The position numbers and the translations under genes were made by a program. Under the pieces are notes generated by a model, which did no database searches, was not told the origin of the DNA, and saw only the letters and a list, made by a program, of their open reading frames with translations. A DNA stretch of 64,000 nt. Origin: Dipteris shenzhenensis (taxonomy: Eukaryota). Below, piece after piece: positions 31 through 37,718 of the stretch; the stretch's first letter is position 1, and each line of letters opens with the position of its first letter. The stretch is taken from assembly GCA_047967505.1 (NCBI GenBank), contig CM106538.1; one strand, 5' to 3'.

Positions 31-2331
31 ATGACACCAGACGAGATGTATATTGGTAGGAAACCAGACATTTCTCATTTGAAAATTTTTGGTTGCATTG
101 CCTATGTCCATGTGCCGGATGAGTTGAGGTCCAAGTTGGATCCAAAGGCTGAGAAGTGCATCTTTATTGGTTATTCTCTGCAGCAGAAAGGGTATAGATG
201 CTATAACCCTTCTATACGTAAGTTCACAGTGAGCAGAGATGTTGTTTTTTATGAGATGAGCAGCTGGTATAAACCAGTAAATGTGATGATTGATGTAGAT
301 GCACAAAATGGTAATGCTGCACAAAATTCACAACAGCAATCACAAAATATCAGTGGACCTACAGTGTCCTCTAGCAGTGGTTCACATACTTCGCCATGGA
401 CAGGTAGATTGAGATCATGAGAATCTCCTCAAAGCAATGCAGATAGTGGTACGCAGGTATCACAAAATGGAAAAGAGAAGGTAGATCAGCCCATGTTTGA
501 TGTGAATGCAGGTCACTCTTATGTGGATGGTGAATCCAGTGGCTCAGAACAGAGCATTCATGATGAGTTGGGTATTCCTTCTGTTGTTACACCTGCAGTA
601 AGGAAGACCAGAGATGTTTTGAGAGCACCTGGAAGTGAGCCTATTTTGCGCAGGTCTACCAGGGTTAGGTATCCTATGGATAGGCTGAAATATGATGGAT
701 TTACAGCCATTCACTATGCCTATATGGTCAAAGTGATACAGGAACCAAAACCCACTTGTTTTGAGCAAGCCATGGGAAATGAAAAATGGGAGAAAGCCAT
801 GGATGAAGAAATGGATGCCTTGGAAGCAAATGCTACATGGGAATTGGTGCCTTTGCCTAAAGATAAGAATGCAATTGGCTGTAAGTGGGTTTATAAGATC
901 AAGCACAATGCAGATGGTTCTGTGAACAGATGCAAGGCAAGATTAGTTGTCAAGGGGTATGCACAGACATACGGCATTGATTATGAAGAAACATTCAGTC
1001 CGGTTGCAAGGATGGCAACTGTAAGAGCAGTCATTGCTATGGCTGCATCAAAGGGATGGTCTTTACATCAGATGGATGTAAAGAATGCCTTCTTGCATGG
1101 TGATTTGCAAGAAGAGGTCTTTATGGAGCAGCCAGCAGGTTATGTTCATGCTATTCATCCTGAGTTTGTTTGCAGGTTGAAGAAATCCTTGTATGGCTTG
1201 AAGCAAGCACCTAGAGCATGGTCTGACAAGATAGGATAGTATCTTGTCACTATTGGCTTTCAGATTTCCAAGGCAGATTTCTCACTCTATGTGAGAAAAA
1301 TAGAGAAAGGTATTATGCTGCTTGTCATCTATGTTGATGATTTGATCATCACAGGTGATAGTGATGAAGATATCCTTCATGTGAAAATGCTATTGAAGCA
1401 GAAGTTTGAGATGAAGGATTTGGGAGAGCTGCGTTATTTCTTGGGCATTGAGGTGATTAGATCACCAAGTGGGATACAGCTCTTGCAGAGGCAGTATGGA
1501 TTGGACATGCTGTCCAAATATGGGATGACAGGCTGTAAGCCTATTTCAGTTCCTTTGGAGCAGAATGTGAAGCTGAGCAAGGATGCAGGTGAGCTTCTAG
1601 AAGAACCTACTATGTACAGACGCATAGTAGGAACTTTGATTTATATGACTATTATCAGGCCAGATTTAAGCTATGCTGTTGGATTGGTAAGTTAGTTTAT
1701 GCAGGCTCCAAGGAAACCGCATTTGGATGCGGCTAGACGCATACTCAGGTATGTGAAGTCCACATTGCAGTATGGACTATTTTATGAGGCTGGGGTTCAG
1801 ATACAGTTGCATGGATACACTGATGCTGATTGGGCTGGTAGTATTTCTGATAGACGATCTACCAGTGGATATGTGTTCTCTTTTGGGAGTGCTGCAGTCA
1901 CTTGGAGCAGCAAGAAACAGCCTACAGTTGCCTTGTCGAGCACAGAGGCTGAGTACAGGGGTGCAGCAATGGCTGCATGTGAGGTAGCTTGGTTGCATAA
2001 GCTACTCTATGATATGCATCAGTCTATAGATGGGCCAGTTGTGATTTATTGTGACAACATGAGTAGCATACACTTGGCAAATAACCCAGTCTATCATGCT
2101 AGAACAAAGCACATTGAGGTGCATTATCACTGTGTGCGGGAGAAGGTTTTACTAGGTCTTATTGATCTAGTTTATGTCAGCATAGAGGATCAGGTAGCTG
2201 ACATATTCACAAAAGCATTGGGCGCAGAGAAGCTGCGTAAGTTCAGAGACCTGCTTGGTGTGCAGGAATTGGTATTGAGCTCGAGGGGGAGTGTTGAGAT
2301 ATCGAGCTCCACTCGCGATATGCCAGGGTGA
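31..2331 (+). pseudogene. copia pol (IN C-term, RT, RNase H) interrupted by in-frame stops
   Basis: One reading frame broken by stops at 418-420, 1237-1239 and 1693-1695. The second copy has GGA, CAG and CAG at these codons. Confidence 0.93.
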
Positions 2332-2643
2332 CCGTTGTGCATTTATGTCACCGACTTGTTAGTTACAGATGCGGTTGGTACACCGCCCACGAATAATAGC
2401 TGGATGACAGCTATCTTTATCTACTCTAGTTCGTGGCTCAGTTAGTATGCTACCTTAGTTAGTTGAGTTCGGTTTGAGACCCACATATAGGGTTCTTCTA
2501 TTTCTTTGTACTTGAGTTCTTTTGGCTTTCACAACTAAGAAGAGGAAAACTGTTTTCAGCCTCCACCTTTGTATGTATTCCCCCATTGTGTATGTGAGAA
2601 AGCCGCAAGTGAGACTCCTTCCCTCTCTCCCACTATCTTCACA
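2292..2643 (+). repeat. 3' LTR of copia family A
   Basis: Starts TGTTGAGAT directly after the PPT and ends CTTCACA. Homologous to the LTRs at 40191-40546 and 45470-45817. Confidence 0.95.
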
Positions 2644-3016
2644 TGGCAGTGGTGCCAATCTGTTATTAGGCCCTAGAAAATGGCATTGAGAAGCCTAAAC
2701 TCACATGTGCATTCTTTTAGCATCAGTGCCCTTCTCTAGAAGGTCAGGTGAGAAAACTCTCATGTGATAACCTTCACATAAGGAGAATTGCATTGGTGCC
2801 ATTCTCTGATTCTCTGCAATCCATGTGATGAATCGAACTTCTGCCATTCTCCTTAACATTATGGAGGATGGCACTAGTGGCATTATCCTCAAACTCTCAC
2901 GGAGGATGGCACTTGTGCCATTTTGAACAAACTCACAATCCATGTGTTCAATGGCATTTGTGACACTCTTCATAACATCATATTATGTTGGAGAATGGCA
3001 CGAATACCATTCTTTA
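2644..3016. repeat. Array of degenerate palindromes, consensus GAGAATGGCACTAGTGCCATTCTC
   Basis: Copies near 2644, 2716, 2783, 2830, 2863, 2901, 2951 and 2991 with unrelated spacers. Two more copies at about 4682 and 4741. Confidence 0.75.
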
Positions 3017-3220
3017 ATATAACCATCTTAACTTTTATATTGTGTATATTTGCTTACTATGTGGGTGTAGTTTTTCATAATGCATATATAAGTTGCTTTG
3101 CCTTGGTTATTTTGTTAATAGAAGTGGCATTGTGGTTGTAATATTTCCTACTACACTTATGATTTTCTATTATACATTTCATTGTGTCCTTGGTTCTTTT
3201 GTTAACAGAACATTGCAAGA

Positions 3221-6200
3221 ATGGCTAGCAAGGGAAAGAGAAAGGTTCGAGAGGTGTCAATTTATGATAGAGTTAGTTCTGGAAGAGGATGGTTTTTGGA
3301 TATATACAATAACAAACTTCAAAAACTCCATAAAGTGCAGTGTTTTGTGAACATCCAAGGAACAACTTTTGAAGATGTTGGACAAGTTAAAGAGATGGAG
3401 GATACCAAGATAGACAACGTTCCTTGTCTCAAAATTCATACATTGGGTGGCAATGTGTATCAATTGGATCCTGCTTGTTTTGATCATGCGAGGATGAATG
3501 CTACTGGGGAGGACACGATGATATCTAGGGGTTGGAATAATGAGCCAAAAAATTATACCAACCAACAGATATTAGAAAGTTTTGATTTGGTAACAAAAGG
3601 GATAAAGCAAGATATAAAAAAGAGTAGAAAAGTTTCGAAAAGAACTAAGAAAAGTGATGTTGAGGGATCAAGCTCTCAAGTGTCTCAAAACACATTGAAA
3701 GAGAAGGCTAGAGAGACCGGTGAGGAGGAAACAACAGGTGAGAAGGAAATAAGGTCAAATGGAAAAACAAGCATTGGGGATAAATTGGATGAAGAAGCTA
3801 AAGATAAAGAGACCAGTTTAGGAGGAAAACAAGGAGGTATGGGAATAGTCACCGATGGAATTGGAAGTGGAGGTGATGCAACGAGGAGTGGTGAGACACA
3901 TATAACAGGACATGGTGAGAAGTCATATGAAGCAACTATCATCCTGTATAAGAAAATCCAGCCAAATGTTGACTTTAAGGCACTACAAAAGAAATTGGAA
4001 AGGAAGGACACAAGTATGACAGGCTTGATGGAGTACGTAGAGTACTTCCCATTTGGTTTGGAGTTTGAGGTGTTGATCCCAGTGATGAATTGCTTTAGAT
4101 CACCAAGCCAATATGTGTACAGGACATTGACCCTCAGCTATGTCAGTGACTTGGTCAAGAGTTTTGCAATGAATGCACGACCTCCTGCAACATGTGCATA
4201 TCTTATGCCTTACCACATAGGCACAAATACTCCGATGTGCAAGGAAGAGATAAAGGTGGAAAAGTTAAAGGATTATAATTATTGGATTCTTGCAGGGCAA
4301 CATTCGATTTATGCTGTAAGGATGTTTATAACTAAAGCACGTGGAGAAGCCTTCAATCAACGAAAAGGTTTCTATACACAGAGGAAGGCGAGAATTGTTG
4401 TCAATGCACTAGTTGAAGCAAGTTGTAAGATATCATCAATGGCCAACATGGAGGCACAGACCGTTTGGAAAAATCATCCATATATCAATATCTTACAACA
4501 CCTAAGGGCTCAGTGGGTTGCATTCAAACGACCAAAGAAACCAGCCCAAGGCCTTGTCAAAGGGCATAAAGATAAACAAAGTTGGGATGTGAGTAATAAA
4601 CTTTGTTTTGTATGCATTTTTTATTTCAAGAATGTTTATGGCTTTGTAAAAGAAATGATAGTAGTGTTAATTCCCTGATGTGAGAATGGCACTAATGCCA
4701 TTCTTCTAGTTACCAAGTCATGCTTTTGACATGGTAATGGGAGAATCGCACTAGTGTCATTATTATCTCTATTACATGATTTGGATTAGAAGAATGTCTA
4801 AGATGATTTTGGTTTTTTTTAATAGAATTTTGTAGGAGTAGCAAGCGTATCGATGGGCGCAAACTTTGCTACCAAGGACACACACATGGTCACATATGAT
4901 GATGACATCTACGAACAATGGATTAGGATTTTGACATTGGTGAAGCAGGGTGATCTTGAGGGTCAAAATCCCACAATAACATATATGAGGTGTCTACTAG
5001 GATTGGAAGACGAAGATGTACGTGCACTTCAAGCAGAGATTGAGTCTAAAGAAATAGTCTTGGTCAAGTCAAGCAAAGACAAGGACTCCATTGAAATGTC
5101 TCAACGGGCAATGGAGATTAAGCATGATAGAGCCCTAAAAGAAGTGCTCATTAAGGAGTTCAACTCACTTCACCCTTCGCCCCAACATCAAACATGGGAT
5201 TCCCTTGCAATTTACTTTAAAATTGATTCAATTGTTTATCAGAGCTTCAAGGGTTCATGTGAGTCATGGGTCAAAGAGAAGCTGCAAGTTGGCCAGTCCA
5301 CACCTGATTTCCCAAAAGCCGCATCAATCTATGTTGATTGGGTGATTAGTTCAATAGAGGGTAACAAGTCTACATCGCAGTCTTGTTTTCCTCGGACAAT
5401 TATTCAAGTGAACATGGAGATGGAGGGGGAGAGCTTTCTAACACGTCACTCCAAGGGACAACTTCCAATTAGCTTGTGTGTGCTTGACACCTCAAAGGGA
5501 TCTACCAAAGGCATGTGTTGGGATAAGGATGCCTTCAAGAAGTTGCTCTGTGGCTTGATGGAGACCGTTGCCACTCCGTCACATTATGTATTGCTATCAT
5601 TTATGAAAATGACAGAGATGGTAAATCTCAAGGAAGCAATGATAGAGGCTCGATTTTGGCATAGAAGGTTTGTGGGTGTTATCCATGAATCAGAGAGTGC
5701 ACAAAAGGGTTTGTCTGAGACCTTCTATTTTTTGTCATTTGTAAGCTCACATGATGGGTTTGATGGATTTGAGAACATGTTAGAAAACACAAGGCCATAC
5801 ACAATAATTGAGGACAATATTCTTGTAGTATGGAACATGAAGTTGTTGTGACGTCTTTACTAATGGATGTGTGGCATTACAAGCATTGTCAAGCAAAAGA
5901 AAAGTGATCTCACTGGTGAAGACATCCCAACAGGGGACAGAGGTCGAGGCTATGTGTGTGGCACATGCATCAAATAATCCCCATAGTAAGATTTGGTCTA
6001 GCATTGAGAGGCCTCTTGAGACACATAGAGCTAATTCACCTATCAATGAAGGAACTAAAGAGGGTGAGCATCACATTGAAGACTTGCGACCTTTAACTGA
6101 AGCAGATCTTGAAGCTATCCCAAAGATTACATTGGAAGATTTGGAGCAAGGTCCAAAGGAATAGGAGAATCTGAAGTATGAGTATTACCAAAAAGCGAGT

Positions 6201-6256: not shown

Positions 6257-6697
6257 AATCGCCTATTTGAGGAGCAAAAAAATATAATTTATTCAAATTT
6301 TCATATGTTTCCTCAATGCTAGAAGGTTAAATATGCATATAACTTTAAAGTTTAAAGCCACTAACACAAATTTCACATCACCCATATTTGAGTTGGCACG
6401 TTTCACTACCAAGTCATCATTAGTATGAAAGACAGACCCTACAATAATTAACTCTCTCTTTCCACCATAGTAATTGAGATCATCAATGCAAACTTCCACA
6501 CCAGTGGGGCATTTCCAAGGACTCCTGGAATGGATTAGTCTACATTCCATGCATATGTAAATGCTTAGTGGAACAAAAAACATGTTTCTTTATCTACTGC
6601 AAAAACATTCCTCCCTAATGATTCACTCTTCCAATGCACTAATCCAACTAGTGCAATAAATTAACCACAAATTCATATTTTGGTGGATGAAATTTTA

Positions 6698-7025
6698 CTA
6701 GATGGTGCAAAAAGGCATGCCATTTGATTTTATATGTAACCTGAGCCCATTTGGACTTGTAAATCAAAGGATGCAGGGATGTGAAAATGTTATTTTTTGG
6801 GCCAGAATTGGGAGGGCATCAACATGCTCCCAAATTTGGCCCAAAAATGACAATTTTCACATTCTTGTATCTTTGCAAGGTCAAAATTTGGTTTTTTGGC
6901 CCAAAAAATGAGTTTTGGACATCCCTGCATATTTTGATTCTCAAATCAAAATGGCATAGTGTTACATATTAAATAAAATGGCAAGACATGATTTAGATGA
7001 ATATCATGCCCTTTTGCACCATCTA
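6698..7025. mobile_element. Fold-back / MITE-like long imperfect inverted repeat
   Basis: TAGATGGTGCAAAAAGGCATG (6699-6719) pairs with CATGCCCTTTTGCACCATCTA (7005-7025). Inner arms also pair (ATATGTAAC/GTTACATAT, ATGCAGGGATGT/ACATCCCTGCAT). Confidence 0.7.
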
Positions 7026-7564
7026 AAAAAATTGTGTGCATTAGATTATTGATTGTATGAATTTTTGGCCGATATGTTGCACCAAATTTAAAGCAAGTTT
7101 TTGCATTAATAGGGTGTGAGAAGACACTGTTTATTTTGGCAAATAAAATAGCAAAATTTTTAACATCCTCTACCTTTTGATTATGCTCGGGGGTTCACTT
7201 TTATAAACCCATAAAGCATGTGCGAGCAAGTACATGTTAAAAATTACCCCTATTCTTGCATTTTTACATTTTTGCATGTAATTGGATAAACCCTTGTACA
7301 TGTTTACATTGTGACACCCCTTCATAAATCTCCATATAACACTTATTTCCTTAATTTTTGACTTATCAATGTACAAAATCATTTTTACGGATACTTTTGG
7401 ACTAGTTTTTGGATAAAATTTAAGCTCTTCAAAGCACAGATGAAAACATAAAAACAAGCAATTTTTTAGATATTTTTGAAGGAGATGAAATCAAAATTAT
7501 AAAATTTAACGTGACACAGATAAGTTCCACCAAAAGATAAGATTCAGCACTTGTAAACTCTCGT

Positions 7565-7680
7565 AATATTTATAATGGTGTTAACAAACACTTTCAAAAG
7601 TTACAATAAGCAAACTGTCATAATATTTATAATGGTGTTAACAAACACCTTCAAAAGTTATAATGGTGTTAACAAACACC
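7565..7680. repeat. Short tandem repeat of TATAATGGTGTTAACAAACAC (3 copies)
   Basis: Direct repeats are visible at about 7571, 7628 and 7659. Confidence 0.8.
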
Positions 7681-8641
7681 AAAAGCTACTATATGCCTCT
7701 CACTGGACGGCATTAATATTTTCCATTTCTATCCTAGATTCAACCCATTCCTCTGCTGAGACCATCTCATCATAATCAATGTAGTTAAAACTACAAAAGA
7801 GAAGTAAAGAATTATAATTTTTTTCCTAGATAGCACTTTCTTGATTCTGTATGGCTTTCACTTCATGGGGTGGAAATCTCCCATAATGAGTGCTATGCAA
7901 AGTGACCTCACTTAGAAAGTCTGTTAGCTCTCTTCTATATGAAAGTAATCTATTTATTTCACTAGTGGACCTACTTATTTTCTGCTCTCCTCCTTCTCTA
8001 GGCAATTCTGAAGAGAAAACTCCTCCTTTTTGTCTTGGGTTAATGGAGCTCATCGTCTCTTTCTTTGCTCTCTGTTCACCTCGTTCTCGGCGACGGTGAT
8101 CCAATCTTTGTTGGTGCTAATGGTTTCCTCCACACAATTGATGACTTTGAAAAGATCCATGAAGCTTTAAGGTATGAGAATATGGAATGAGGAACAAGAG
8201 AAAGTGAGGAGTAAGGTGAGATGGAAGAAGAGTTCAAGAGTAAGGATGTGAGATGAAACAAGAGTGCAAGAATGGTAATGGGAGTAGACTTCAAGGCAAG
8301 ATGGAAGAAGGGTTTGAGAGTAAGGCTATAAGATGAGCACAAGAATGGTAATGGGATTAGAATATAGCCTGAGAGTAAGGCTACAGGCAAGATGGAAGGA
8401 GTAAGCTTGAGGAGAGGACAAAGGTAATGAGAGCAAAGTGGAAGAAGAGTTTGAGATAAAGCTACGGGTGAGATGTAGAAAACAAATGACTAGAGAGTGA
8501 TCTATAGTATTGCAGACTCATAATGTGAGATGAAAGATTTAGAATAAAGAATTGTGAGAGGCTTAGATGTTGCTATGATGATGGTTGGAGAATGCTAGAC
8601 TACTAGATTGTGTGAAGTAATAGATGCAAGACCATAATGAG

Positions 8642-8753
8642 CATGAGATATTTATTATATATAATAAGTTAGACTTTAAATGAAGACAAGTGATATAATT
8701 ATCAGATTCCAATCATGAGATATTTATTATATATAATAAGTTAGACTTTAAAT
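8642..8753. repeat. Direct duplication of about 40 bp
   Basis: CATGAGATATTTATTATATATAATAAGTTAGACTTTAAAT occurs twice. Confidence 0.8.
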
Positions 8754-9679
8754 AAAGTGAAACTGATTAAATAAATTGAGAGAGGACGAGTTGATGATGA
8801 GTACACTCTACTAGATAGTGTGAGGTAACAAGTGCAAGACCAGAATGTGAGACGATAGATTTTCAATAAAGTGAGATCTAAGAAATAATTATTATATTCT
8901 TATGATGAGAGACTATTTAATGTATATAATAGATTGGAATGAAAGTTTTTTTTTTTTTCATCATCACACATTTCATTAGGGGAGAATTTGGGTCTCCAAA
9001 GGGCCCCCAATTAGTGTTTCCTAGTTTCAAGGGGTTAGTGAGGGATTTAAGGTGTACCAATAGGAATGCTCCTTTTTGTGGGGCAATGCCATGTTGAGGT
9101 GGCATGTGCATAATAAATGCCCAAGGAAATAGGTGGTTTCAATTGGAAAAACCATGGTTTGTGGTGAAAGAAAACCATGGATTTTGAGGAGAAAACCATG
9201 AAGTTGGGGGAGGAAGAAGCGTGTGCTTCCATGTGTCCTTGAGCACCAAAAATTCAAAATTTTCCCCACCTACAAAGGCATGCATGGCAAGTGGCCTTGC
9301 AGGTGGGAGGAAGGAGGAAATCCCATGATAGTGACATGTGGCCTTGCACTTCCCAAAGTAAGGACTAGAACAGTGAGCAACCTCGTGCGGTTGCCACATG
9401 GCACAACAACTCGCCGCCACCCACCCAACCTACCTGCCAAAAAGTAATTACGTGACTAGCGTGCCCATGGAGAATGGAACCCATAACCTCCTATACATCA
9501 TTCATGAGCCTTGACCACTAGGACACCAAGCCAATGGTGACACTTCTCCCTGCCACGTGAAATATAAAATAACCCCACTTCTTCATTTGGTGGATCCTTG
9601 GGCATAAATGCAAAGCAAAACCATGTACAGTCTTCTAAAACCACTTTGTCCACCTTTATGACCCCTACAGATAGGATTG

Positions 9680-22311: not shown

Positions 22312-25300
22312 TCACGTCGGGATAAGGCGAGTGTGAATGAACAGCCATCGGGGTGGTGAGTAGCGCCACCGAAGGCCCTGCGAAGTCTGCTCGAAGAAGA
22401 GGCCCTGAGTGTTCCAAGTCCGGAGGAAGCGTCTCCGCTTCTCTTGACCGGACCGGGAATCTCCCTGAATCTGGTCCCACTGGCCTCTGTGGGTATGAAT
22501 AATCTCGCACCAAATATCAGTCATGATTTGGGCAGTCGATAAGGAGGTGCCACCAAGGATCTGCGCGCAACGCGAGGTCCAAATGTGCCACCCTGCTATG
22601 CTGCTAATAATCTCCCAGACTGGCTGCCTCTCCTGAACTCCTGTATCCGCCTCTGCTAGGTGCTGCGGGATACCCTCGAGCAGCCCCCATGTACCCTGCA
22701 TGATAAGGAAAGTGGGGTCCTGCTGGCATGCCTCGAATAAGTGATGTAGACCAGGTGCGGTGCTGCACTAACAGAACGCACCCCACGTGATCAAGCTGGT
22801 GCTGCGCGAGTGAGAATCCCGAAAGTCCACCTCCACACTTCCTGGGCGCGAGTGCAGCTCCACAGGCAGTGTTTTGGTGACTCCTCAACCTCATGGCAGA
22901 TCTGACAGCGTCCGTCCTGGCCTATCTGTCTCAACCAGCTCCCCACCGGAAGACCTTTGTGGGCGAGAAGCCACAGGAAGTAGGAGATCTTCCGCGGCCG
23001 CCAGCTCTCCCACAAGGCCTTCCAGAAGGCTTGCAAAAAGAATCTGGAAATACCCTGTGCATACCAACTGGGCCGCTGGGTGGGGGGGCGGCTCTGCATC
23101 CTCCCAAGAACTCGCCTGCCCAAAGTCGTGCTGTAGGCAAAGAAGGAGGTCGGCCCCTGTCCTGTCACAACCTCTGGCCAGCTCCACTCTCCTGGGTCCC
23201 AATCAAGCTCTGACAAGGCCCGCCCCTTCCAGAGCCAGAGTCGCCAAAGCTGCAGCTGATCCTGCTCAATGCTAGGATCGGTACGCCAGACCTTCCCCAA
23301 AAGGCCTACGATCCGAACCCTCTGCCATGGGAGTAGGGGGTCGATGAGTGCATCCTCTCTCCTGAGTCGTCCATCCCCCATAACCGCGAAGAAAGAAATA
23401 GAGGAGTCGTCCATACGTCCTGTGACCACCAGTGGGATGCCACAGGGGGTGAACTGTCCCAGCCAACGGTCGTCACCAGGCATGAGGATCTGAGGCTCAG
23501 GTGGAACCAACCAATCAGCTGGGACTGCGCCGTCGATCTCCGTGTGTCTCGCCTGGGCTCCACGTGCACCTCCAGCTGCGTCTGCGAGATCAGCCGTCTC
23601 CAAATGTCTGTACGTGTCCCTCCAAACTCGAAGGGACCGCCGGGCTGGCCCCCTCATCCAACCATCCCACCTGATATGTGATCTCTCCCCCAACTGAAGG
23701 CCCTCGGCATCTCTGACCTGATCATTCCAGATAAGCGGCTGGCGATCGATCTCCTCCTGATAGCGGGGAGGGGACTAAATGAGACTGACGCCTCCAAACC
23801 ATGAGGAGGCTACGAACGAGTGGGGAACGGGGCTGAGTAAGCGGGGCGGAAGTGAAGATCCACCTGAGGGACGGGAGCCACTCTCCACCTCGGCACGGGA
23901 CACAAGAACCGACCCCCTGCTGAAGTAGCATCTTCCACGTCTGCCCCCCCGGGGTCAAACCGCGGATGACTAACTTGCCTAACAAGGCCTGACTCTGCAG
24001 CTCTGGATCGATGACTCCCAGGCCTCCCTCAGCCTACGGAAGAATAACTGTCTGCCAAGCAACCCTGGCTCTGGTATCTCTGAGGCCATCCTCCCCGGAC
24101 CAAAGGAAGTTCCGAACCAGCCTCCTAAGCTGTGCCACACTAGATCTCGAGAAACACCAACAGGAAGCCACATACCAAGCCGTGGCAAGGAGGACTTGGT
24201 TGACTACCAAGGCACGACCTGCAAGGGAAAGCTTAGCAGTGCTCCAGAAAGCGGATGGAATCTAGCATCGGGAGAAACTGCTGAGCTGGTGTGATGTCCA
24301 GGCCGACCTGAAAACCCAGGTATCTAGCTGTCTGTCCCCATGGGATCCACCTGAAACCCAAAAACCTCCCCCACTGAGAACGCGCCCCGGGGTCTGTGAG
24401 GAAACCAACTGATTTGTTCCAGTTGATTTTCGCACCAGCAGCCGAACAGAAGACCTCCAGGGCCATCCTCACCCTCTCCAGCATCAACTCATCGTCCTGG
24501 ACATACAGGGCTGTGTCATCCGCGTACTCCGAGTCCAAGAGCTCCGTGTCCTCCCGGAGGGGAAGGCGAACACCCCTGATCCCTGTAGACCTCGCCCGGA
24601 GGTAGTAAGTCATAGCCTTGGCGAAGAAGAGAAACAGGTAAGCGGCAAGGGGGCAGCCCTGACGCACTGATCTCTCCAAGCTAAAACGCTCACCCATCCT
24701 GCCTCCAATGATGACTCTGCTAGAGGCTGTCCTGTACAAAGCTGAAATACCCTGAATCCAACCTGCTGGGAAACCTAGCCGCTCCAGAGTCCCCTCCAGA
24801 AAGGACCAGTCCACCCGATCGTAGGCCTTCTCAAAGTCGAGAAGTAGGATGGCAAGGTGTGATCCGCTGTGCTGAGCCCACTCCGCCGCCTCTGAAAAGG
24901 TGAAGACATTATCCAGGATACTGCGATCCTGGACAAAGCCTGTCTGAGTGTCATGAATGAGGTCTGGAAGTAGAGGCCGAACTCTGGCGCTGATCATCTT
25001 GGCTAGGATTTTGTAGGCAGTGGTAAGGAGAGTGATCGGGCGCCACTGACGGATCTCCTGTCTATCTCCTCCCTTCGAGATGAGGCAAATCAGTCCCGAG
25101 GAGAGGCTCTCTTGCATATAACCGCTGCTGAAAATCCTCTGAAGAGCTGTTAAGAGGGGCTGATGGATCTGGTCTCAGAAGGAGGTGAAGAATGCCCGGG
25201 ATAGCCCATCCTCACCTGGGCACTTCTGTCCATCGATGGCCATCAAGGCCTCTAGCATCTCATCCGTGGTAAACGGTGCCAACAGCGTCACTTGCATGCT

Positions 25301-26618
25301 AGGCTGGACCAAGGAAGGAGTGTGTCTCCACACCTCCTCACGGGCACGACGAGTGCGAGGAGAGCAAGCGGCTCCTGCTGGAAAAGGGTCCTGTAGAAGT
25401 CGGTGGCCAATCCCAAGACCTCTCCCGGATCCGTGACGATGTGTCCCTCCGCTATCCTGAGACTCCGAAGCTGATCACCTGCAGCTCTCTGGCCATGTGT
25501 CCTGAAGAACTCCCTGCACATCCGGTCACCCTTCCGAGCCCAGAAGGAGAGAGAGGCGTGATAGGAAAACTCTGAGCCCGGGGATGCCTGCTGGAGCCGC
25601 TGAATGGAGGCGAGGTCCCTCCGAAGGGCTCTCTCTCTACCCCACCACTCCTGTCGAACCTGTAGGGCTGCGAGCTGTGGCAGATCTGGCTGGACTCCTG
25701 CAAAGCCTGTGCCACCGAATCAACCAAATCCGCGCACTCGCCCCAGTCTCTATCCCAAAGACTGCAAATACTGTTGCGCACGTCCTCCCTCGAGAAAATG
25801 GAGTCGGGAATCCGGCATGAGCGGGGGGGAAGGGCCTGAGCTGCCGAATCTAATGATAAGAGCACCGGCGCATGGTCGGAGAGTGTCGTCCCTGGAACTA
25901 TACCGGCCTGACCGCCTCTGCTGATGGCCCAATCACTAACATAAAATCTATCCAGCCTCTCCAGGAGTCTGCCTCCTTCCCTGCGGAAACCCCACGAGAA
26001 GTCCAAGCTCCCGTGCCAACGCCGGAAGGACGGGTCTCGCCAACAGTCCCTTCCTCCTGTCGCAAAGATAAAAGAGTCCCAAGCGGACTGCTCTGCCTGA
26101 GACATACCTGTAAACTCCGGTCCTCTGCCCTGCTGGTCCTCCAAGGTCTCCAAATTGTTGAAGTCACCTCCAACAATCCAAGAATCCATGTCTGGGAGAA
26201 TCCCTGTAAGTGTCCTCCAGAAGGTGGCTCTACAACGGAGATCTGTGGGAGCATAAATGTTGAGAATTCCAACTCTAGAGCCCTCCAATTCCAAGCCTAC
26301 CCAAAGGGCACGACCTGGAATCAACGTGCCATGACCGAAAACTCCCTGGGCTAGCTGCTCTCCCACGGAAGTACAGACACCACCACTCCTCCCCAGTGCG
26401 CCGATCGAGGGCTCCCAATAAGTGTGAGAGCGACCAGGGAGGATCTTCCCGCATCTACGGGAGTGAGCCGCCGAAAGCTTGTGTTCCTGGAGCAGAAGTA
26501 CATCCAAACGTCCTATCACTGCTGGCTGAAGTTCCTGTCTCAAAATGAGCTTCCTGGGACCACGGGTGCCAGAAGAGTGAAACCCGTTCACATTCCAGGA
26601 TACGAGGTGTAGGCTCAT
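22312..26618 (-). pseudogene. LINE ORF2: APE endonuclease, reverse transcriptase and zf-RVT, frameshifted
   Basis: SWNVNG, LQEHK, GGDFN, RLDRF and SDH (EN). WRPITLL, LDFEKAYD, RQGCPL and YADD (RT). FLWLL.H..L...C..C....E...H.LW.C (zinc finger). The protein is split over several frames. Confidence 0.93.
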
Positions 26619-28656
26619 GGTGAGGACTGGGAGGCAGCGAACAACTGTCTGCTCGCGGTGTCGAGGTCGAAGAAGAAGCTGACATTTCGGAGTAGAGGCG
26701 CTGGCGCTTATGGGAAGGTTTGGAGGGGGAGGCGGGGTCGTCCTGCCCGTCCTTCAACACCTTCAGCAAAGGCGAGAGGCCTTTGGTACCATGAACGAAG
26801 GCTTTCTCGAGCCAGCTCGAGATCTCTGAGGTGGACATCCCGTAGAAGGCACGGAGTTTTTGAGGCATCCAAGCTCTGACATCTTGGGGGAGGGGCCAAG
26901 ACAGGGGCGGCCTGAGGATCACAATCAGTCTGAATCGTTTGGCGGCGCAGCGCCACCGCAGGCGCACGTCACCCTCGGACCACTGAGTCTCGAGAAGCTG
27001 CCCACCGGACGGGCCTATCCAGGAGCAAATCTGAGCATGCGTCTACTCCCTGAGAGCCTCCCAGACCGAGTCGTCTGTCCAGGTTTCGGTGCCGTCGCTG
27101 AGGAACGTGAAAGCAAAGCTAGGGCCATCCCTAGGGGCCAAGGCGGCTATCTTCCCATCCGCCCCTTTGCGGAGCAGGAAGATACTGATGTCGAGGCAAG
27201 CAGGGAAGGTCCCGAGGTCGGCCACATCCAAGTAGTCCCAGGGGCCAGATCTGTAAAAGTCGCGGGGGAGCTCTCTCTCCTGAAGCTGAGGCCCGTCAGA
27301 GTCTGCCACTGAGGGGCTAGCGGACGGAGAAGCCTGCTCCGGTGGTGGTGTAGACTCCGGGTGTCCTGCCAGCGGAGGGGGAGGGGGAGGGGGAGGAGGC
27401 TGGGGAATAGGCAGCTCAGACTCCTCAGGGGCGGCTAGCGGAGGAGAAGAAGGAGGGGGAGCGGGAACTGCCCTCGGCTGAGGAACCGTCGGAGCAGCTA
27501 GCTCTGCGGGAGAACTGAAAGAGGCGGGGGGGGGAGGGATGGGGCTGCAACTGGAACTGGGGCTGAGAAGGAGGGGGAGAAGACTGAGGAGGACGAGGGG
27601 GCTGAAGCTGCGGGTCGGGAGACAAGGGGTGCAGTTGGGGGATGGGCTGGGGCTGGATGGGAAGAGGCTGGGGAGAGGAAGAGAGGAGGACCTGAGGCTG
27701 TGGAGGGCCGGCTACCGTCGAAGAAGATGCTCTCCCATGTCCCTGGGGCGGCTGCCTGTCGGGTCTCTGAGGTGCAGCTACAGGCGGGGTAACCTCTGCC
27801 TCCTTGCCTTTATCAGAAATCTTCTTGTTCTTTCCTCTTTTCCTTCTAACCTCAGTCCAGCCGCTAGCTATCTCTGGTCCGGCTGCCTCTGCTCCTCCTG
27901 GCATGGCTGCCCGGAGGGGGGAGGAGGGGGCAGAGAGGGGGGAGGCGGGGGAGGCCGAGAAGAGCTGGCGAAACGTGGGCAAGCAGCAGCCAGGTGTCCA
28001 AAGCCGTGACACCTCAGACACTGTCCTGGCTGTCCGGTGACTACCATGCTCTGGGTGATGCTGCCGGCACCTGTCACGATCTCGATCACTGCCGGGAGAG
28101 TCGCAGGATCTGCCACAGCCACACGGACTCGGGGGGCTCCTGCCGTAGTCACCGCATCGGCGAAAGTATCGTGCATAACCCAGCCGAAGTGGGAACCCAG
28201 GTCCCTAACAATCGGCCGCAGCTCAGCAGCAAGACCAGGAAAAACTAGCGTCACTGGATGGCGAGGTATACGGAACCGGGCATCAAAATCTGCTGCGCTG
28301 AATCCACGGTACCACGGGACTATCATGATAATCTTTCCATCCACTGACGTGGGGGAGCCAGCAATCAGGTTGCTCGCAGCTTTCGCACTAGAGAGTTTAA
28401 GCCAGAAGATGCCCCTTCCCATAAGGGCCACCTCCTCAATATGGCCGTCCTCTAGCATGAGAGTGGACTGGAGCCAGTCCCTGATGGCTGATCTGGAGGG
28501 GGAATGTCCAATGACTCTGCCATAGACAGAGGTAAGAGCAAAGTCATTGGCAACCTCCTGAACCCGAGATGATTGCTGCTCTGTCAGGATGACGCGGTAG
28601 GCGTCTGGAGAGGGAGGGACCGTCTGGGCCTCCGGTTCCGGGAAGGGAGCCGCCAT
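26619..28656 (-). pseudogene. LINE ORF1 (DUF4283/RRM-like domain plus CCHC knuckle), frameshifted downstream
   Basis: MAAPFPEP start at 28656, MGRGIFWLKL..VPW and CLRCHGFGHLAAAC. A Pro/Ser-rich tail continues in other frames. Confidence 0.8.
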
Positions 28657-31075
28657 ACCGCCAAGACAAACTGCGAGGCTTCCGATGAGGAAGAGGCTGT
28701 CACCCAAAAAAGGGGGGGGTAGAAGCGGGAGGGTGGAGCCTGGGTGTGGCGGGAACGGAGGTGGCGCGAGGTGGAGGCGTGGAGGCAGGGGACGGATGAA
28801 GTGGGGCGGCGGGAGCGGAAGCGGGGGCGGGGGAGAGGCAGAGCGGGGACGAGGGGGCGGACGGGGGGCGAGGGGAATGGAGGGGCGGAGGGGGCGGGGT
28901 GGGGCGAATGGACGGGGGGGGGGGGGGGGCGGGGGTGAAGGCGGGAGGGGAAGGCGGGGGTGGAACGGGAGGGCGGAGAGGCGGGAGGGGGCGAGGCGGG
29001 AGGTGAGGGGTGAGGGGGCGGAATGGGCGGCGGGGGTGAGCAGAGTGGAGCGAGGGGGTAGCGGGCTGGGGCGGAGGGGGGTAGCAGGGCGGGGGTGAGC
29101 GGAGGGGGTAGCGAGGCGGGGGTGAGCGGAGGGGGTAGCAGGGCGGGAGGTGTGGAGCGAGGGGGTAGCGGAGTGGAGCAGAGGGGGTAGCGGGGCGGGG
29201 GTGAGCGGAGGGGGGTAGCGGGCGGGGGTGGAGCGTGGCGAGGGGGACGGAGCGAGGTGGGGGTGAGGGGGGAGGTGAGGGCGGAGGGGTAGGGGCGGGA
29301 GAGGGCGAGGCAAGGAGGGGCTAGGGGGAGGTAGAGGTACGGCGGGGGAGGGGAAGCTCGCAGGAGCTCCTGTCATAGATATTAGCGGAGGACTGCTCAA
29401 TAGAGATATAGCTTTAGCAGCTGTGAGACGCAAGTGGACAAATGTATTGAGACCCACAGGAGATGCTAGAGATGACCACTACCTTCTACCAATAGTTGTT
29501 TCAATTAAAGGAGGAGTTTGTCCAGGTCCTTTTAGCCTAGGAGGTAGTCTGGGACCATATCCTGCCAGTGGTCTCCTCAAGCATGAGTGAGTGGATAAGT
29601 GGAGGCCCCTTTCACTAACAAGGAGTGCCCTCAAGTCCCTCCCTTTGCAGAAGTGCCATAGAAAGGATGGATTGATGGCATCCTTCTTTAGTCCCTCCCT
29701 TTGCCTACCTCAAGGGAATAGGGTAATGGACTATTTCGGCAAGGATTGGACCATTGAGCCAGTTTAGTCTTAACAAGGTAGGAGGGGGTGTGGTGGCATC
29801 TTTGGTTATGGGTGGTCAACATGTTCGAGAGATGCAATGGGCTCCAAGAGAGTGGTTTTGGTGTGCACACATAGGGCACTTAGAGAGGGTGGAGAAGATG
29901 CTCTTCCTTTCGTATATGACATGCATTGGTTGTCACCTCCGATTGTAGGGTGTAGCCCAACCTCCCTTGAGAGAGTGGAAAAGATTATCTCTAGATTTTG
30001 GTTTGCTTATGGACTAGCTACATGCCACAGAGGATGGGGGCCCTCCAGATTATCACAAGGACACACAAGATGCAATGGAACTTCAAATGGGCAGAGGGGT
30101 TCTCCCTAGATCGGACCTCTCTAGCTTAAAATATCCAAGGCCAATGGTCTTTTGGATATAGAGGCACAAGATATGCTAACATTATTGCTTGGAACATCTA
30201 GGTTGCCCATTGCAGTTTGTGATGGGAGGCCAGCAAGTTTCCCTAGTATCCACCTTAGTTGCCATCTAGCATGGCAAGACATTTGCGTGCCATATGGGAG
30301 CGTGGGATGTTAGGATCTTGAACTATCGATGAGAGGCAAATGTGTTTCTGCAAGGCTTGGCTTACAGGTGTCTATTTCATAGATACCTAGGGAATGGGAT
30401 GGGTTCTCTGAAAACACGCTTGTTGACAACTAGTCCTTTCTTTAGCATTTCTTCCATGCTCAACCACCATGATCAATTGATTTATAAAGGTCAATTTATT
30501 AATGGAAAGTTCTTTTTTTGAGGAAAAAAGTTACAAATAGCATAGAGACATTCCAACAAGAACTTCAAAGTTTGTATGAAGTTCAAGATATGCAACTCAT
30601 CCATGCAAAAAGAATCATGACCAATCTGGAGGAGAGCAAATGGAGAATTTTAAGGAGTCAAATAAAGGGACTAAAGACCAAAGAAAATTAGATGATGCAA
30701 GTATAATAAGAACTCACTACAACGACAAAAACCCAACTGGCATAATCATTACAAAAAATTGCCAAGAAAACCACATTGACAAAATGCTACAGAAGTCAAA
30801 TACAAGTGGTAAAGTGTCATCACATAGCATGATCCAGATACAAGTGTTGTTACCACTAACATAGCATAATCCAAAGCAAATGGTTGTGTTACCACTAACA
30901 TAGCATAATCCAAAGCAAACTAATTTCAAAAGAGACATATAAATCATTATACAATACAAAGAAAAGTGTCAAGAACGACAAAATCAAGAAGGACAAACAT
31001 CTCAAGCAAGAATCTCAAATAGTATGAAAAAGATGGGAGAACCCAATGGAAGAAGTCCTAATGTAAGGAGTCACA

Positions 31076-33263: not shown

Positions 33264-33878
33264 TCAGAATACTGGGCAACCTTTAACTATGATACCTGGG
33301 GCAGTAGGGCATGTGGCAAGTGGACAATGATCAATATCTGTGCCCCACCACTCTAATTTTTTCTTTGTCAATCCAAGTGAGAAATAAAGTAGTACTCCCA
33401 TAAATGCTGTACCAGCATCAAGAGCTGCAGAAAGTATGTAATTGTAACGCTGCCACCATCCTTTCCTGAACTGAAAAATGTAGAAGTTGAAAAAAGCGCC
33501 TACTATCAACCAAGTGAAAATGTTCACAGGAGTTGCAGGGGGCATGCTTGAAAAGCCTCCAAGCAACACTGGAATATTAATTAGGGCTATCCATCCCACT
33601 CTTGGGAAGACTTTGCTAAGAATCCAGATTGGAACAGGAAGAAGAGCCCCAAGCAAAAAAAACCAGGTGAGGTTTTTATAGATACCAGAAGATCCAAAGA
33701 GGTACCTTGGACCTACAAGGCCCCACAATACAGAGGCATCATACGCAACTCGATCCTTCGGGCACGTCCAGGGACTCGCAGGAGGAAGAGTATCAATATC
33801 ACAAATGGAATCAATTGATGTAAGCATCCACCATGCGATTGATATGTTGACTGTACCAGCAATCAATGTGCCCACAAG
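33264..33878 (-). CDS. OPT3: OPT3 coding exon 6
   Basis: LVGTLIAG...KGCPVF followed by TGA. Confidence 0.93.
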   Translation of the reverse strand, partial: LVGTLIAGTVNISIAWWMLTSIDSICDIDTLPPASPWTCPKDRVAYDASVLWGLVGPRYLFGSSGIYKNLTWFFLLGALLPVPIWILSKVFPRVGWIALINIPVLLGGFSSMPPATPVNIFTWLIVGAFFNFYIFQFRKGWWQRYNYILSAALDAGTAFMGVLLYFSLGLTKKKLEWWGTDIDHCPLATCPTAPGIIVKGCPVF

Positions 33879-36793
33879 CTGTAACACAGATTAACAGAAA
33901 TGTTAAGTGTCTCCCAACAAGCCCACCTTGCTCCACTTATGGTGTACCCTGTGCATGGTGTGTTGAGGTTATATTTCTTTTGGAGGAGGAAGAAGGGGTT
34001 TTCTCACAGCAGCATGCTCGTGTGTGGACATGCATGTGGAATGGGAGAGTCCACTCAGTGAACAGGTGCATGTGGTTAGCTTCCAAGTTTTGGCAAAGCA
34101 GAGAACAAATACATGAAATAAATGTGCTTAGTGAGAAGAACGTCAACCTGTGCTGTGTACATACACCTCGGCGGAATTTTCATGTAATGACCCAGCTTTA
34201 GGTCAGCCAAGAATGAGATAGCATGGGTCATACTTATCCTGCCATAGGTCTTGAAGAGTGTGTTTGCTATTGGCCTTCCTGGAAGTAGATAGCCAATCAC
34301 AAACTCTGCCAATACATTGAATCCAGGAGGCTGTTCCATGAAAAGTTCAAAGCCCATCAGACTATTTGGCTGGGAGAGTTCAAGAAAATAAAAGAGTAGT
34401 TGATTCAGTCTTATGATCTGCTTTGTCGCTTCAGCCAATCCATCCATCCAAAAGACACACCAAAGTTGAAACAGGGAAACCAGAGTTCATGAAAGAAAGA
34501 GATGGCATGGCTCCTTGTGCCACACCATGAACAAAGAGAGCTGAGAATTCAAGACTAGGGCACAGTAGCCAGCAGGAAACAAACCTGATTAGTCGTTGCT
34601 GTGATTACTCCAATGGGAAGGGTAAAAAGTGATGCAATACCGCATGCCAGAAGTACACCCCACCAGGGTAGCTGAACAGCATCTTCCCATACAATGGACA
34701 CCATAAGAGATAGTGCAAGGCTAACCACCAGCAAAATGACAAACCAGCTCTGAGGGACCTCCCTATACCGTCTCATCAATTGTGAATGCACATCAGATTT
34801 CTGGTCCATCATAGCAGACTGACTACGCTGAAGGATTTCCCTGTCAAACAGAAGATATTTCTTGTTTAATTAGATGCTGGTAAAATGATTTTGAAGGTAA
34901 CAGGAAATTCCCACCATCCAGTTTGTAGGTAAGGCACGTACTTCCCATGGAAAAAAGCCACATGAGTAAGGGTTGCTGCAATTCTTGCAAACCCAAATCC
35001 GATGGAAAGAGCAAAGAATGTGCTCATATACAAACTGCTATAATTGTTGTATGCCTGGGCGTCAAAGGTGAAATCTGTTGTCATCACACGACTTATATTG
35101 TACTTATTCCCTTTGTCTGTGTACAGCTGACTTGAAAATAAGGCAAAAGTTCTTGCCTGATATGCATCTCCCCAATATGCGGCTGGGACAACTACGTAAA
35201 TAAAGAGAATAAACCCAATCCCAAGGTTGACAATAGAGAACCATGGTGTCACCAGGGGGCTACCAAGATAGGATGATACTCCAGCCCAGTCTAGTGAGAT
35301 TGCCCCAATACCCAAACCATGGAAACCAGAACCCACTTGATTTGCAGTGACATTGTGTGGCCAGATCCAGCATATCCAGGAGAAGAATGTGAGCATACTG
35401 AATAAGTACCCTGGTAATGTATAATATGCAAAGCTAATCATCGCAAATATAATGAAGAATTGCATTCTGGTCAATCCCTTCCTCGTACGAATATCATTCT
35501 CGTGTAGAGTCCTGAGGGTTTTCTTCACAACAAATGATAAACATCAGACAATACACTATTTCATTTGCATCTCCTATTCAAATGTTCAAATTTGCAGCTT
35601 TATTTTCTTTCTATTGATTTAAAAACATAGTTGATAATTGTGTTCTTCTCTTGGATTTGTTAGGGCAGGCCCAAAATAGTATTTCTAAAATAAAAGCTAA
35701 GCCTGCAGGCTGCATGTCCATGTGAACCGTGCCTTTTTACCATGCCCACGGCACTGCCAAGGGAGCGCACCCAAGCTGGCATTAATCAAGCCTGAGGCCT
35801 AGACATGAGCGCATATCTCACAGCGCTTTGGCCAGGCTCACTCTTGGCATGCCCACGCTGGGGGGCAGCCTAAAAATTTTCCAAAAAAAGTCTCAGGAAT
35901 CAATAATAATTATGAAGGCTCAGGAGCTACCCAGAAAGAAACAACACAATAACATTTTGGGTGCACCTGAAAAGGGAGACTTGCACTAAGTTCGAAGGCC
36001 ACCACATATGTGCGGGTTCAATCAGGTATCGCCGAAAAATGCCAGCCCATCCATAACCGAGTACCTTGTCATGCACACAGAAAACAAGCGTGAGAAAGCC
36101 TCAAAGAGAACACCAGAAGAAAACCACCTGCCTACTGGTGAGGAGACACCAAGATAGGCCAAAAGTGCCAAAGGACTTCATTTCAAAAATCAGAGAGCAC
36201 GGAGGAAAAGTTGAGATCCCCAGCTTACCAATTTAAAAGTTCTAAATTGAGGAGAAATATATTGAGCTTATTACCTGCGTTGTGAGAACAATGAGAAGGC
36301 CCGCGATAAAGCGAATGTTTTTCTTGTAAAAGGCTTTTATGATGTTGATTGCTCCGACTGAGTATGCATCTCCACCACCAAACGCCACGCCAGCATTTGC
36401 AAAGATCGTGATGAGCACGTGCTCTTTCATGTTAAAGGGTCCTGGGTTGAGGCAAAATTTTGAGCCAAGTAGGGGAACTGTAAACTGAGTCGCGGGAAGC
36501 ACTGCTGCCATAAACCGTCCAATAGGAAGGGCAGCTATCTGTGCAAATGTGGCTGATACCGCGAGGGGCTGAGTTCGGTAAGAAAAGAACGTGTTTAAAA
36601 ACATCAATACAACGCAGGACGTTACGCCTAAAACCCACATCCTGAAAGTCATGACAGGCAAAGACGGATCATCTGTGATTGGCACAGTAAGCGCGACTTC
36701 TTCCACTACGGACTGAACTGCATTCACATCTGGAGGCTCAACACTCGCCCCGTTTGCATATGCCGCCCTTCCAAAGGCAGGATTGTCTTCCAT
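33264..36793 (-). CDS. OPT3: Oligopeptide transporter OPT3-like (6 coding exons, 2241 nt, 746 aa)
   Basis: [32 protein letters not shown] (NPG motif), [18 protein letters not shown] (KP motif) and C-terminal [19 protein letters not shown]. All five introns are GT-AG and phase-consistent. Confidence 0.95.
34148..34330 (-). CDS. OPT3: OPT3 coding exon 5
   Basis: [10 protein letters not shown]...[17 protein letters not shown], flanked by AG and GT. Confidence 0.92.
34585..34840 (-). CDS. OPT3: OPT3 coding exon 4
   Basis: [10 protein letters not shown]...ITATTNQ, flanked by AG and GT. Confidence 0.92.
34942..35511 (-). CDS. OPT3: OPT3 coding exon 3
   Basis: TLHE...FFHG, flanked by AG and GT. 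Confidence 0.92.
35967..36064 (-). CDS. OPT3: OPT3 coding exon 2 (not in the ORF track)
   Basis: [32 protein letters not shown], flanked by AG and GT. Confidence 0.92.
36275..36793 (-). CDS. OPT3: OPT3 coding exon 1
   Basis: ATG at 36793 to ...VLTTQ, then donor GTAA. Confidence 0.9.
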
Positions 36794-37718
36794 TCTTATA
36801 AACAGGCGCCCGTTAGCACTACCTTCTGGTTTTGAGGGCCCAAAAAATCTTCAAAACAAAAATAGAAACCAAACATCCCATAAACATCTAACATTGTGGC
36901 GAAAGATTCAAAATTAGACACCTCTCTCAACTCTGTACTTCACACGGTCCATTCCATCGCGATACCAATACTTGGAAGCGATTGAAAATTGAGAAAAAGT
37001 GTCTAGAAGAAAACCTGGAAACGAAATGAATTCCAAACGTTGGAGCTATGGATATCTACACAGATGATTACACAAAGCCAACAAGCTAAACATTCAAATT
37101 TTACCTTAAATTCAAAGCTGCAGCAAAGTGAAGCTCACAATGGGGCTGTCTGCATAAACCAGAATTCCGTGTCGACTAATCGAGTCTCGCAGGAAGATGC
37201 TGGTCGCAAAGTCTGAAACAGACTTCATCCAATAGCGCAAGCACCCAAATTTGATGACTATCAACACGGGCGAGCAGGCTATTTATGAGCTCTTGGACCG
37301 GTACGACCAGGAATTGGACAAAGGGAGGAATGAGGGAAGGCGAGGCGGGTACGGCAATTAGTGGGGAGGTAGTGGAATCCAGAAGCCAACGATGGGAGCT
37401 GATTGCAACAAGGGGGAGGGGGAGAGAGGGGCAAGGAAGCGGTGGAGCACGCGCGGGCAAGGAGGGAGCACGCGCTGCCAAAAGCCATAGCCATCGCCCG
37501 AGTTGGTCGAGTTTGGTCGAGGCGGCAGTGGCAGTTAGACACTGTCACTCCTCACTTGAGTTTCAAAGGCAAATTAGCCATCGCCACCATAGCCGGAGCT
37601 CGAGCTTCGAGCTCGAGTTCGAGTTCAAAGCCAAAGCCATAGCAATCGCCATCGCCATAGCTGGAGCTTCGAGCTTCCACTCTCAGTAGACACTGTCAGT
37701 CCTCCTCTTCAGTTCCCC

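Follow-up and report, generated by a model that had tools for sequence, protein, structure and literature searches.

Clustered palindromes around a plant-like nuclear gene for a ParB- and methylase-like protein: candidate sites of self-recognition

Introduction

A 64,000-nucleotide stretch of DNA from Dipteris shenzhenensis (contig CM106538.1), which is called the window in the following, contains a two-exon gene that is accompanied by two clusters of degenerate 24-nt palindromes, one located upstream of the start codon and the other within the intron. Clusters occur nowhere in the window but in non-coding DNA belonging to this single gene, and this supports the interpretation that the palindromes are candidate cognate docking sites for the product of the adjacent gene, a ParB–methylase-like protein that would bind the DNA of its own locus and is probably derived from a mobile element. 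We favour this interpretation tentatively and give it somewhat less than an even chance. With its copia elements, a long interspersed nuclear element (LINE) and an oligopeptide-transporter (OPT) gene, the window is plant-like nuclear DNA. For comparison, two related loci, L001 and L002, were returned by one scan of metagenome contigs.

In bacteria, ParB-type proteins characteristically load onto chromosomes and plasmids where palindromes are clustered. Our findings partly support the view that a pair of the type formed by algal ParB accessory genes and their arrays occurs here in plant-like DNA, with a protein that is invisible to profile searches and has a dead-looking methylase centre. That ParB-like genes can be paired with repeat arrays has been noticed only recently, in algal transposons, and according to the accessible text of that report self-binding is a proposal there, too (10.1101/2025.02.11.637652). 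In the literature searched, no paper brings ParB together with a DNA methyltransferase and a transposon in a land plant. If true, our interpretation would extend this type of pair to a plant-type genome, with a profile-invisible protein and a degenerate methylase centre, and would offer a testable case in which a protein and its sites seemingly change together between lineages. It thus bears on self-DNA recognition by mobile elements and on the discovery of new sequence-specific DNA-binding modules.

Palindrome clusters in the non-coding DNA of the gene

The window was scanned with the 24-mer consensus of an earlier note on this DNA, GAGAATGGCAC-TA-GTGCCATTCTC, and with the core TGGCACTAGTGCCA. 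At up to two mismatches the core is matched six times in 64 kb where 0.20 matches are expected, and six or more matches were found in none of 100 shuffles. Five of these six start at positions 2644, 2869, 2907, 4687 and 4746 (spans 2644-2920 and 4687-4759), and the sixth, at 59817, is isolated. The full 24-mer gives a sharper picture: at up to seven mismatches the window has seven matches, and each of them belongs to one of the two clusters (upstream 2783, 2828, 2864, 2902 and 2991, in the intron 4682 and 4741), just as the note had described the palindromes to be grouped. One further mismatch adds the copies at 2639 and 2947, so that nine of twelve matches fall into the clusters; at the same threshold 20 block shuffles yielded 0-3 matches with a mean of about 1.2. 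The upstream copy at 2713 becomes detectable at nine mismatches. Altogether, eight copies upstream and two in the intron differ from the consensus at 2-9 of 24 positions, and none was detected at up to nine mismatches in exon 1 (3221-4588) or exon 2 (4826-5851), in agreement with the roughly eight upstream copies, two intronic copies and palindrome-free exons originally reported. Coordinates of all features are collected in Table 1.

The spacers between the copies cannot be aligned with one another, and no array was reported for the palindrome region by Tandem Repeats Finder, which agrees with the further claim of the note that the spacers are unrelated. Reading by eye revealed a companion element, AAACTC(A/T)CA / CATGTG, which occurs in the spacers and always on the plus strand. 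Within the upstream cluster, segments 2817-2862 and 2936-2981 as well as 2863-2899 and 2901-2937 are duplicates of each other, and the cluster shows a higher-order duplication with a length of about 119 nt. The copia 3' long terminal repeat (LTR) was rightly said to adjoin one palindrome copy: the stretch homologous to the LTRs of the other copia (40191-45817) has exactly 2643 as its last position, so that the LTR abuts the first copy. Contigs assembled from sequencing runs leave 2735-3028 uncovered, cover 4646-4937 thinly and have edges close to those of the arrays (3020, 3043, 4646 and 4696), and are thus uninformative on the arrays.

Table 1. Positions of the gene, its palindromes and neighbouring features in the window
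Feature	Position	Strand	Remarks
Truncated copia 3' LTR	2292..2643	+	Homology with LTRs of the copia at 40191-45817; 2643 is the last base
Upstream cluster	2639..3014	.	Eight degenerate 24-nt palindromes (core and 24-mer scans) starting at 2639, 2713, 2783, 2828, 2864, 2902, 2947, 2991; spacing 35-74 nt
Untranslated leader	3101..3220	+	Two pyrimidine-rich ...TTGTTAA(T/C)AG acceptor-like elements
Coding exon 1	3221..4588	+	456 codons, open; conserved N-terminal region (residues 1-130), basic low-complexity linker, predicted ParB/Srx-fold domain
ParB/Srx-fold core (predicted)	4049..4474	+	P0001 residues ~277-418
Intron	4589..4825	+	GT..AG, phase 0, 237 nt
Intronic pair	4682..4764	.	4682-4705 (2 mismatches), 4741-4764 (4 mismatches)
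Coding exon 2	4826..5851	+	341 codons (to 5848), then TGA; helical region, then N-terminal two thirds of the predicted beta-class DNA amino-methyltransferase-like domain
LCVLDTSK	5474..5497	+	Invariant Asp at the putative DPPY place, positioned from strand order
Decayed 3' coding end	5852..6165	+	Remnants in two other frames (frame translations, tblastn)
LINE	22791-29478	-	Several broken frames; Exo_endo_phos, RVT_1 and zf-RVT domains
OPT oligopeptide-transporter gene	33264-36850	-	Multi-exon; sole evident host gene in the window
Third copia	54682-59587	-	

A more trivial explanation would be a functionless, decayed minisatellite or local duplication in promoter and intron, the founding unit of which happened to be palindromic. 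The degeneracy of the copies and the 119-nt duplication are what such a process would leave behind, and repeats of this kind are common in plant non-coding DNA, positions 8200-8900 of the window being one example. On the other hand, the motif is still recognisable where the spacers no longer are, which is unlike the expectation for a neutrally decaying tandem repeat. It also reappears 1.7 kb away in an intron, and arrays accompany the gene in a distant relative as well (see below). We consider the minisatellite explanation unlikely.

The position of the upstream cluster, which ends about 200 nt 5' of the ATG and is followed by a TATA-like CATATATAAG at 3084-3093, would suit conventional cis-regulatory elements through which a dimeric transcription factor of the host controls the gene, and dyad symmetry is usual for the sites of dimeric factors. 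Ten copies, however, are unusual in a promoter, and the motif found in L001 is a wholly different one, which makes control by a host factor improbable. The leader between the cluster and exon 1 contains two acceptor-like elements (3101-3123 and 3188-3210) that are 91% identical, the second one stopping 10 nt short of the ATG; its counterpart in L001 reads ...tttgtttcag 6 nt ahead of the ATG. An intron in the 5' untranslated region (5'-UTR) is therefore possible, and if it were real, the upstream array would be intronic or promoter-proximal.

Such a location, in turn, would fit palindromes that act as hairpins in the pre-mRNA and affect splicing or feed small RNAs. Compared with shuffled sequences, greater stability (z -2.0 to -5.6) was seen for four of the six upstream copies that were folded and for one copy of the intronic pair, and likewise for the intron as a whole (4657-4775, z -4.65). 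A palindrome is, however, expected to fold better than its shuffles, one copy (4741, z +0.46) does not fold, and the L001 motif is not palindromic and is also present 3' of the gene. A role as RNA hairpins consequently appears very improbable. A search of the window against Rfam yielded no match. As a separate observation on the intron, a degenerate half-copy at about 4661-4676 is the pairing partner of the copy at 4741, and a small hairpin of its own is formed by 4709-4737. The introns of L001 (84 nt) and L002 (about 93 nt) are some 150 nt shorter than that of the window, which suggests that a foldback piece was inserted in the latter.

The ParB/Srx-like domain

The description of the gene as ParB-like in the earlier note is supported at the level of fold and not at that of sequence. 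An AlphaFold2 model of residues 244-456, computed from 28 aligned relatives (alignment A2), reached a predicted local distance difference test score (pLDDT) of 90.5. When this model was compared with 48,161 chains by VIA, only eight chains scored Z ≥5 and all of them are of the ParB/Srx type: PadC (Z 8.6, root-mean-square deviation (rmsd) 3.4 over 100 aligned residues), KorB (8.4, 2.9 over 94), free serine kinase (7.5), pNOB8 ParB-N (6.5), Arabidopsis Srx (6.3), SbnI (6.2), Atu1540 (5.5) and human Srx (5.1), which we take to share one common fold. The top of the Foldseek list is likewise occupied by ParB, Noc, Srx and KorB, with PadC as the best match (E 1.6e-3). The model thus places the exon-1 domain in the ParB/Srx superfamily at the fold level. 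In contrast, Pfam profiles of the ParB type matched neither P0001, the product of exon 1, nor 18 relatives, one of the 28 members of alignment A2 touched DndB (E 0.04), and sequence and profile searches of the PDB found no ParB.

The family is characterised by the motif YWIL(A/D)GQHS, in which G359 and H361 do not vary among the 28 sequences and the glutamine is present in at least 90% of them. The box presumably corresponds to ParB box II, which it recalls apart from the arginines. In passing, residues 284-320 of chain B of PDB entry 9wj7, an 'N-methyltransferase', read HWIISGKHPMRASK where the family box reads 'YWIisGQHSisAaK'; with an E value of 0.24 this similarity is not significant. Prediction of a homodimer of the ParB-like domain, run without controls, gave no answer (score 0.00), and the helical region that follows (end of exon 1, residues 26-178 of L001 exon 2) had no informative fold match within larger models.

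The methyltransferase-like domain

The second module had been missed altogether, as the earlier note named only the ParB-like part. Its fold was assigned on a model of L001 exon 2, to which exon 2 of the window is 31% identical; this model was built from 11 sequences and has a pLDDT of 69. Residues 180-418 match beta-class DNA amino-methyltransferases. VIA returned 21 chains with Z ≥8, among which ranks 1-11 are beta-class DNA amino-methyltransferases or type III Mod subunits and ranks 12-20 relatives of MT-A70; the highest scores were obtained with CcrM (Z 14.4, rmsd 3.5, 200 aligned residues), TTHA0409 (14.1), EcoP15I Mod (14.0) and M.MboIIA (13.6). Foldseek gave 115 matches at E ≤0.001, again with CcrM at the top (9.1e-8). 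As modelled, exon 2 of L001 thus has the beta-class fold of N6-adenine/N4-cytosine methyltransferases in permuted order, with the catalytic strand first and the strand binding S-adenosylmethionine (SAM) last. As with the first module, sequence comparison is silent: no Pfam methyltransferase profile matched P0002 (the product of exon 2), P0012 or P0020, and a search of PDB sequences with the profile of alignment A3 found no methylase.

The catalytic centre of this domain appears degenerate. An aspartate that is invariant in the family was assigned to the region of model strand E210-216, the putative place of the DPPY-type catalytic motif, and in alignment A3 it is followed by LTK, TSK, LIK, CTE, NTE, LTT, TME or TTE. 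In no row (n=11) is the aspartate followed by two prolines and an aromatic residue. All nine rows of the alignment that cover the region have an F-[GS]-[DN]-G loop, a candidate for the FxGxG SAM-binding loop.

Both modules occur in one polypeptide in P0012 (990 amino acids) and P0020 (750 amino acids). We conclude that the protein is a fusion of a ParB/Srx domain with a degenerate DNA methylase; judged by the two folds, it is built from two DNA-handling modules.

The state of the gene and its relatives

The intron position is common to the relatives, all of which read 'WD|VS...' into the intron at this place, as seen directly in L001 and L002. Exon 2 of the window aligns to residues 6-268 of its L001 counterpart, while the rest, the C-terminal methyltransferase-like part, is present as remnants in two other frames, and where the relatives have the motif-I-like FGDG, the window copy reads VKTS. 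In contigs of runs X1 and X2, position 5848 is followed by one additional T, which prolongs the frame by 20 codons. From its sequence, the window copy has probably become a pseudogene in its 3' part. Among the substitutions listed between exon 1 and the X1 contig (n=32), 13 are synonymous and 19 are not, which does not suffice to judge selection.

Neither exon product (P0001 and P0002) found a match in Pfam or in sequence searches of the PDB. An exhaustive HMMER search produced 77 representatives at E ≤0.001, nine of them at ≤1e-30, all unnamed and many of them short fragments of less than 250 amino acids. No word-sharing proteins of 799-2280 amino acids were found, a scan of viral_contigs returned no relative, and for the N-terminal region the best match in the ESM Atlas (score 0.76) was an unnamed cluster that gave no lead.

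Arrays beside a related gene

L001 is a complete contig of 4265 nt with the gene at 546-3200, and its protein is 40% identical to that of the window; L002 comprises 1186 nt and has no flanks. The L001 contig contains 15 copies of a 17-mer, TGGACAAGTGGTGGACC, at up to three mismatches, all on the plus strand, where 0.01 are expected. Four of these lie upstream at 83-269, that is 277-463 nt before the ATG, ten downstream at 3379-4237, beginning 179 nt past the stop codon, and one in an exon at 710. A looser 33-nt family counts six copies upstream and ten downstream. Upstream, the units form a tandem repeat of 55 nt, and the two flanks share units of 75-89% identity without representing one collinear duplication. 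The palindromes of the window are absent from L001, and the L001 motif has a single, chance-level match in the window. A locus-specific array of a short motif about 200-280 nt from the start of the gene is therefore present in both loci with at least 500 nt of 5' flank, which suggests, for a very small sample, that motif arrays recur with the gene family while the motif itself differs.

Two side observations concern the motif. A loose likeness of half-sites can be seen by eye, TGGCAC versus TGGAC, together with 'AGTGGTG' in the copy at 2644. The exonic copy of L001 (710-726, exon 1, three mismatches) coincides with the stretch encoding a conserved VGQVVE peptide, so either the array unit may have arisen from the coding sequence, or a site for the protein may lie within the gene that encodes it.

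Known systems and a possible mechanism

Clustered short palindromes are familiar from the bacterial systems ParB-parS, KorB-OB and Noc-NBS, and ParB–methylase fusions exist in phages and plasmids. The gene of the window shares with the bacterial ParB systems the predicted ParB/Srx-fold domain and the clustered short palindromes nearby, but it is a nuclear gene with an intron, has GQHS in place of the arginines and lacks a ParA partner among the open reading frames scanned. In the En/Spm (CACTA) elements of plants, subterminal repeats bound by TnpA form clusters of short motifs, partly as inverted dimers. The clusters are close to an element-encoded gene there and to a gene of probable mobile-element origin here; the En/Spm repeats, however, occur at both ends of the element within terminal inverted repeats, and no such ends were seen in the window.

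The closest parallels by description come from algae. In red-algal Plavaka transposons the ParB-like gene PAG3 adjoins tandem arrays of inverted repeats, and its authors propose that the protein binds and modifies its own transposon (10.1101/2025.02.11.637652). As far as the accessible text of that report goes, PAG3 and the gene of the window are both eukaryotic nuclear genes that join an N-terminal ParB-like domain to a domain of a nucleic-acid-modifying type and have an array of inverted repeats next to them, and the same hypothesis of self-binding is a proposal in either case. PAG3 differs by its 2-oxoglutarate-dependent oxygenase domain and by its position in transposons of 17-19 kb with a DDE transposase, whereas the gene of the window lies in plant-like DNA, has no visible transposon frame and is similar to ParB by fold only. 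A Sola1 transposon of Ectocarpus carries an accessory gene that combines a ParB-like domain with an N4C/N6A-methyltransferase (PMC12477816), and Dam-type methylases fused to a ParB helix-turn-helix domain are described from chlorophytes and chytrids (PMC4738411). In the available portions of these publications, the algal fusions have the same order as the family studied here, with the ParB-like part preceding the DNA amino-methyltransferase; their domains were recognised by the authors and predicted to be active, and no array of binding sites is mentioned. In the window family, by contrast, Pfam finds neither domain, and all 11 relatives (11 of 11) are degenerate at the DPPY position.

A plant protein that behaves as we envisage is VANC, the targets of which form tandem repeats in Arabidopsis VANDAL transposons and vary between related elements (PMC5735166). 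To the extent covered by the accessible text, VANC resembles our interpretation in being an element-encoded plant protein with arrays of short, element-specific motifs in its own non-coding DNA. It belongs to an unrelated protein family, and its binding and the resulting hypomethylation were shown by experiment, whereas the sites in the window are candidates.

In view of the algal elements, the palindromes might also be subterminal repeats of a DNA transposon that are bound by a transposase encoded elsewhere, with the ParB–methylase-like gene as mere cargo. The algal relatives of this type of gene indeed reside in giant DNA transposons (Sola1, Plavaka, Mutator), the arrays of L001 lie on both sides of the gene, and the many fragmentary and diverged relatives (77 at E ≤0.001) together with the decayed state of the window copy are reminiscent of a mobile element. 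Against this, Pfam detected no DDE or other DNA-transposase domain, and no ParA/CbiA-type domain either, in 59 of the 64 open reading frames of at least 120 amino acids, these 59 being the ones scanned. Neither a second palindrome array nor a terminal or otherwise matching inverted repeat was found in the 59 kb downstream of the gene, so that no transposon frame is visible in the window, which on the 5' side of the gene is bounded by the copia and the window edge. Moreover, the L001 arrays are direct rather than inverted, and two of the palindromes are separated from the array by 1.7 kb and occupy an internal intron. Recognition by a foreign transposase is thus an unlikely explanation, on a par with that of a decayed minisatellite.

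On the interpretation we prefer, that of docking sites for the gene's own product, the locus would encode a nuclear protein consisting of the conserved N-terminal region, the ParB/Srx-fold domain and a beta-class methyltransferase-like domain without DPPY, and gene and palindromes would most likely form a module that is what remains of a mobile element or was cargo of one. The protein would recognise the dyad-symmetric 24-mers, probably as a dimer, with recognition residing either in the helical region behind the ParB-like domain or in the methylase-like domain. It would gather at its own locus, where the sites are clustered in non-coding DNA, in a loading process modelled on bacterial ParB, KorB and Noc at clustered palindromes and on VANC at the arrays of its own VANDAL element, and might there mark, protect or regulate that DNA, possibly with effects on chromatin or silencing. 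Motif and protein would diverge together between lineages, and the copy in the window would probably not be fully functional any more.

Several points weigh against this interpretation. As to the protein, canonical ParB binds DNA by a helix-turn-helix domain and not by its ParB/Srx domain, and no helix-turn-helix domain was identified in the models of the gene product. The box II of canonical, cytidine triphosphate-dependent ParB is the arginine patch GxRR, and if our alignment of the boxes is right, the A2 family has GQHS and none of these arginines. Foldseek found no match for the ParB-like model at E ≤0.001. As to the sites, no array was found 3' of the window gene, the introns of L001 and L002 contain no copy of the motif, and the L001 motif is non-palindromic and runs in the same direction on both flanks. 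L001 could equally be a gene unit embedded in a satellite or tandem array. Only two loci could be inspected for flanking arrays, and given the decayed 3' end of the window copy, any function may belong to the past.

A bolder version would regard the locus as a plant nuclear counterpart of parS/ParB, a selfish one-gene unit with fast-evolving site arrays of its own and no conventional transposase. Its catalytically dead methylase-like part would serve as a DNA reader beside the ParB/Srx domain, and the protein would load on the arrays and then spread or bridge, thereby shielding the unit from silencing or carrying it along. If true, this would represent a type of mobile or self-propagating element without a conventional transposase; we regard it as improbable.

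Surroundings of the gene

The copia element preceding the palindromes (1-2643) belongs to the same family as that at 40191-45817, and their LTRs are 93-94% identical. The former is clipped by the edge of the window, contains matches to RVT_2 within 421-1695 and is interrupted by in-frame stops at 418-420, 1237-1239 and 1693-1695. On the other side of the gene, a foldback inverted repeat resembling a miniature inverted-repeat transposable element lies at 6670-7054, with 90-nt arms that are 79% complementary and outer arms of 55 nt. It is followed by short tandem or dispersed repeats at 7555-7695 and 8213-8890, which are unrelated.

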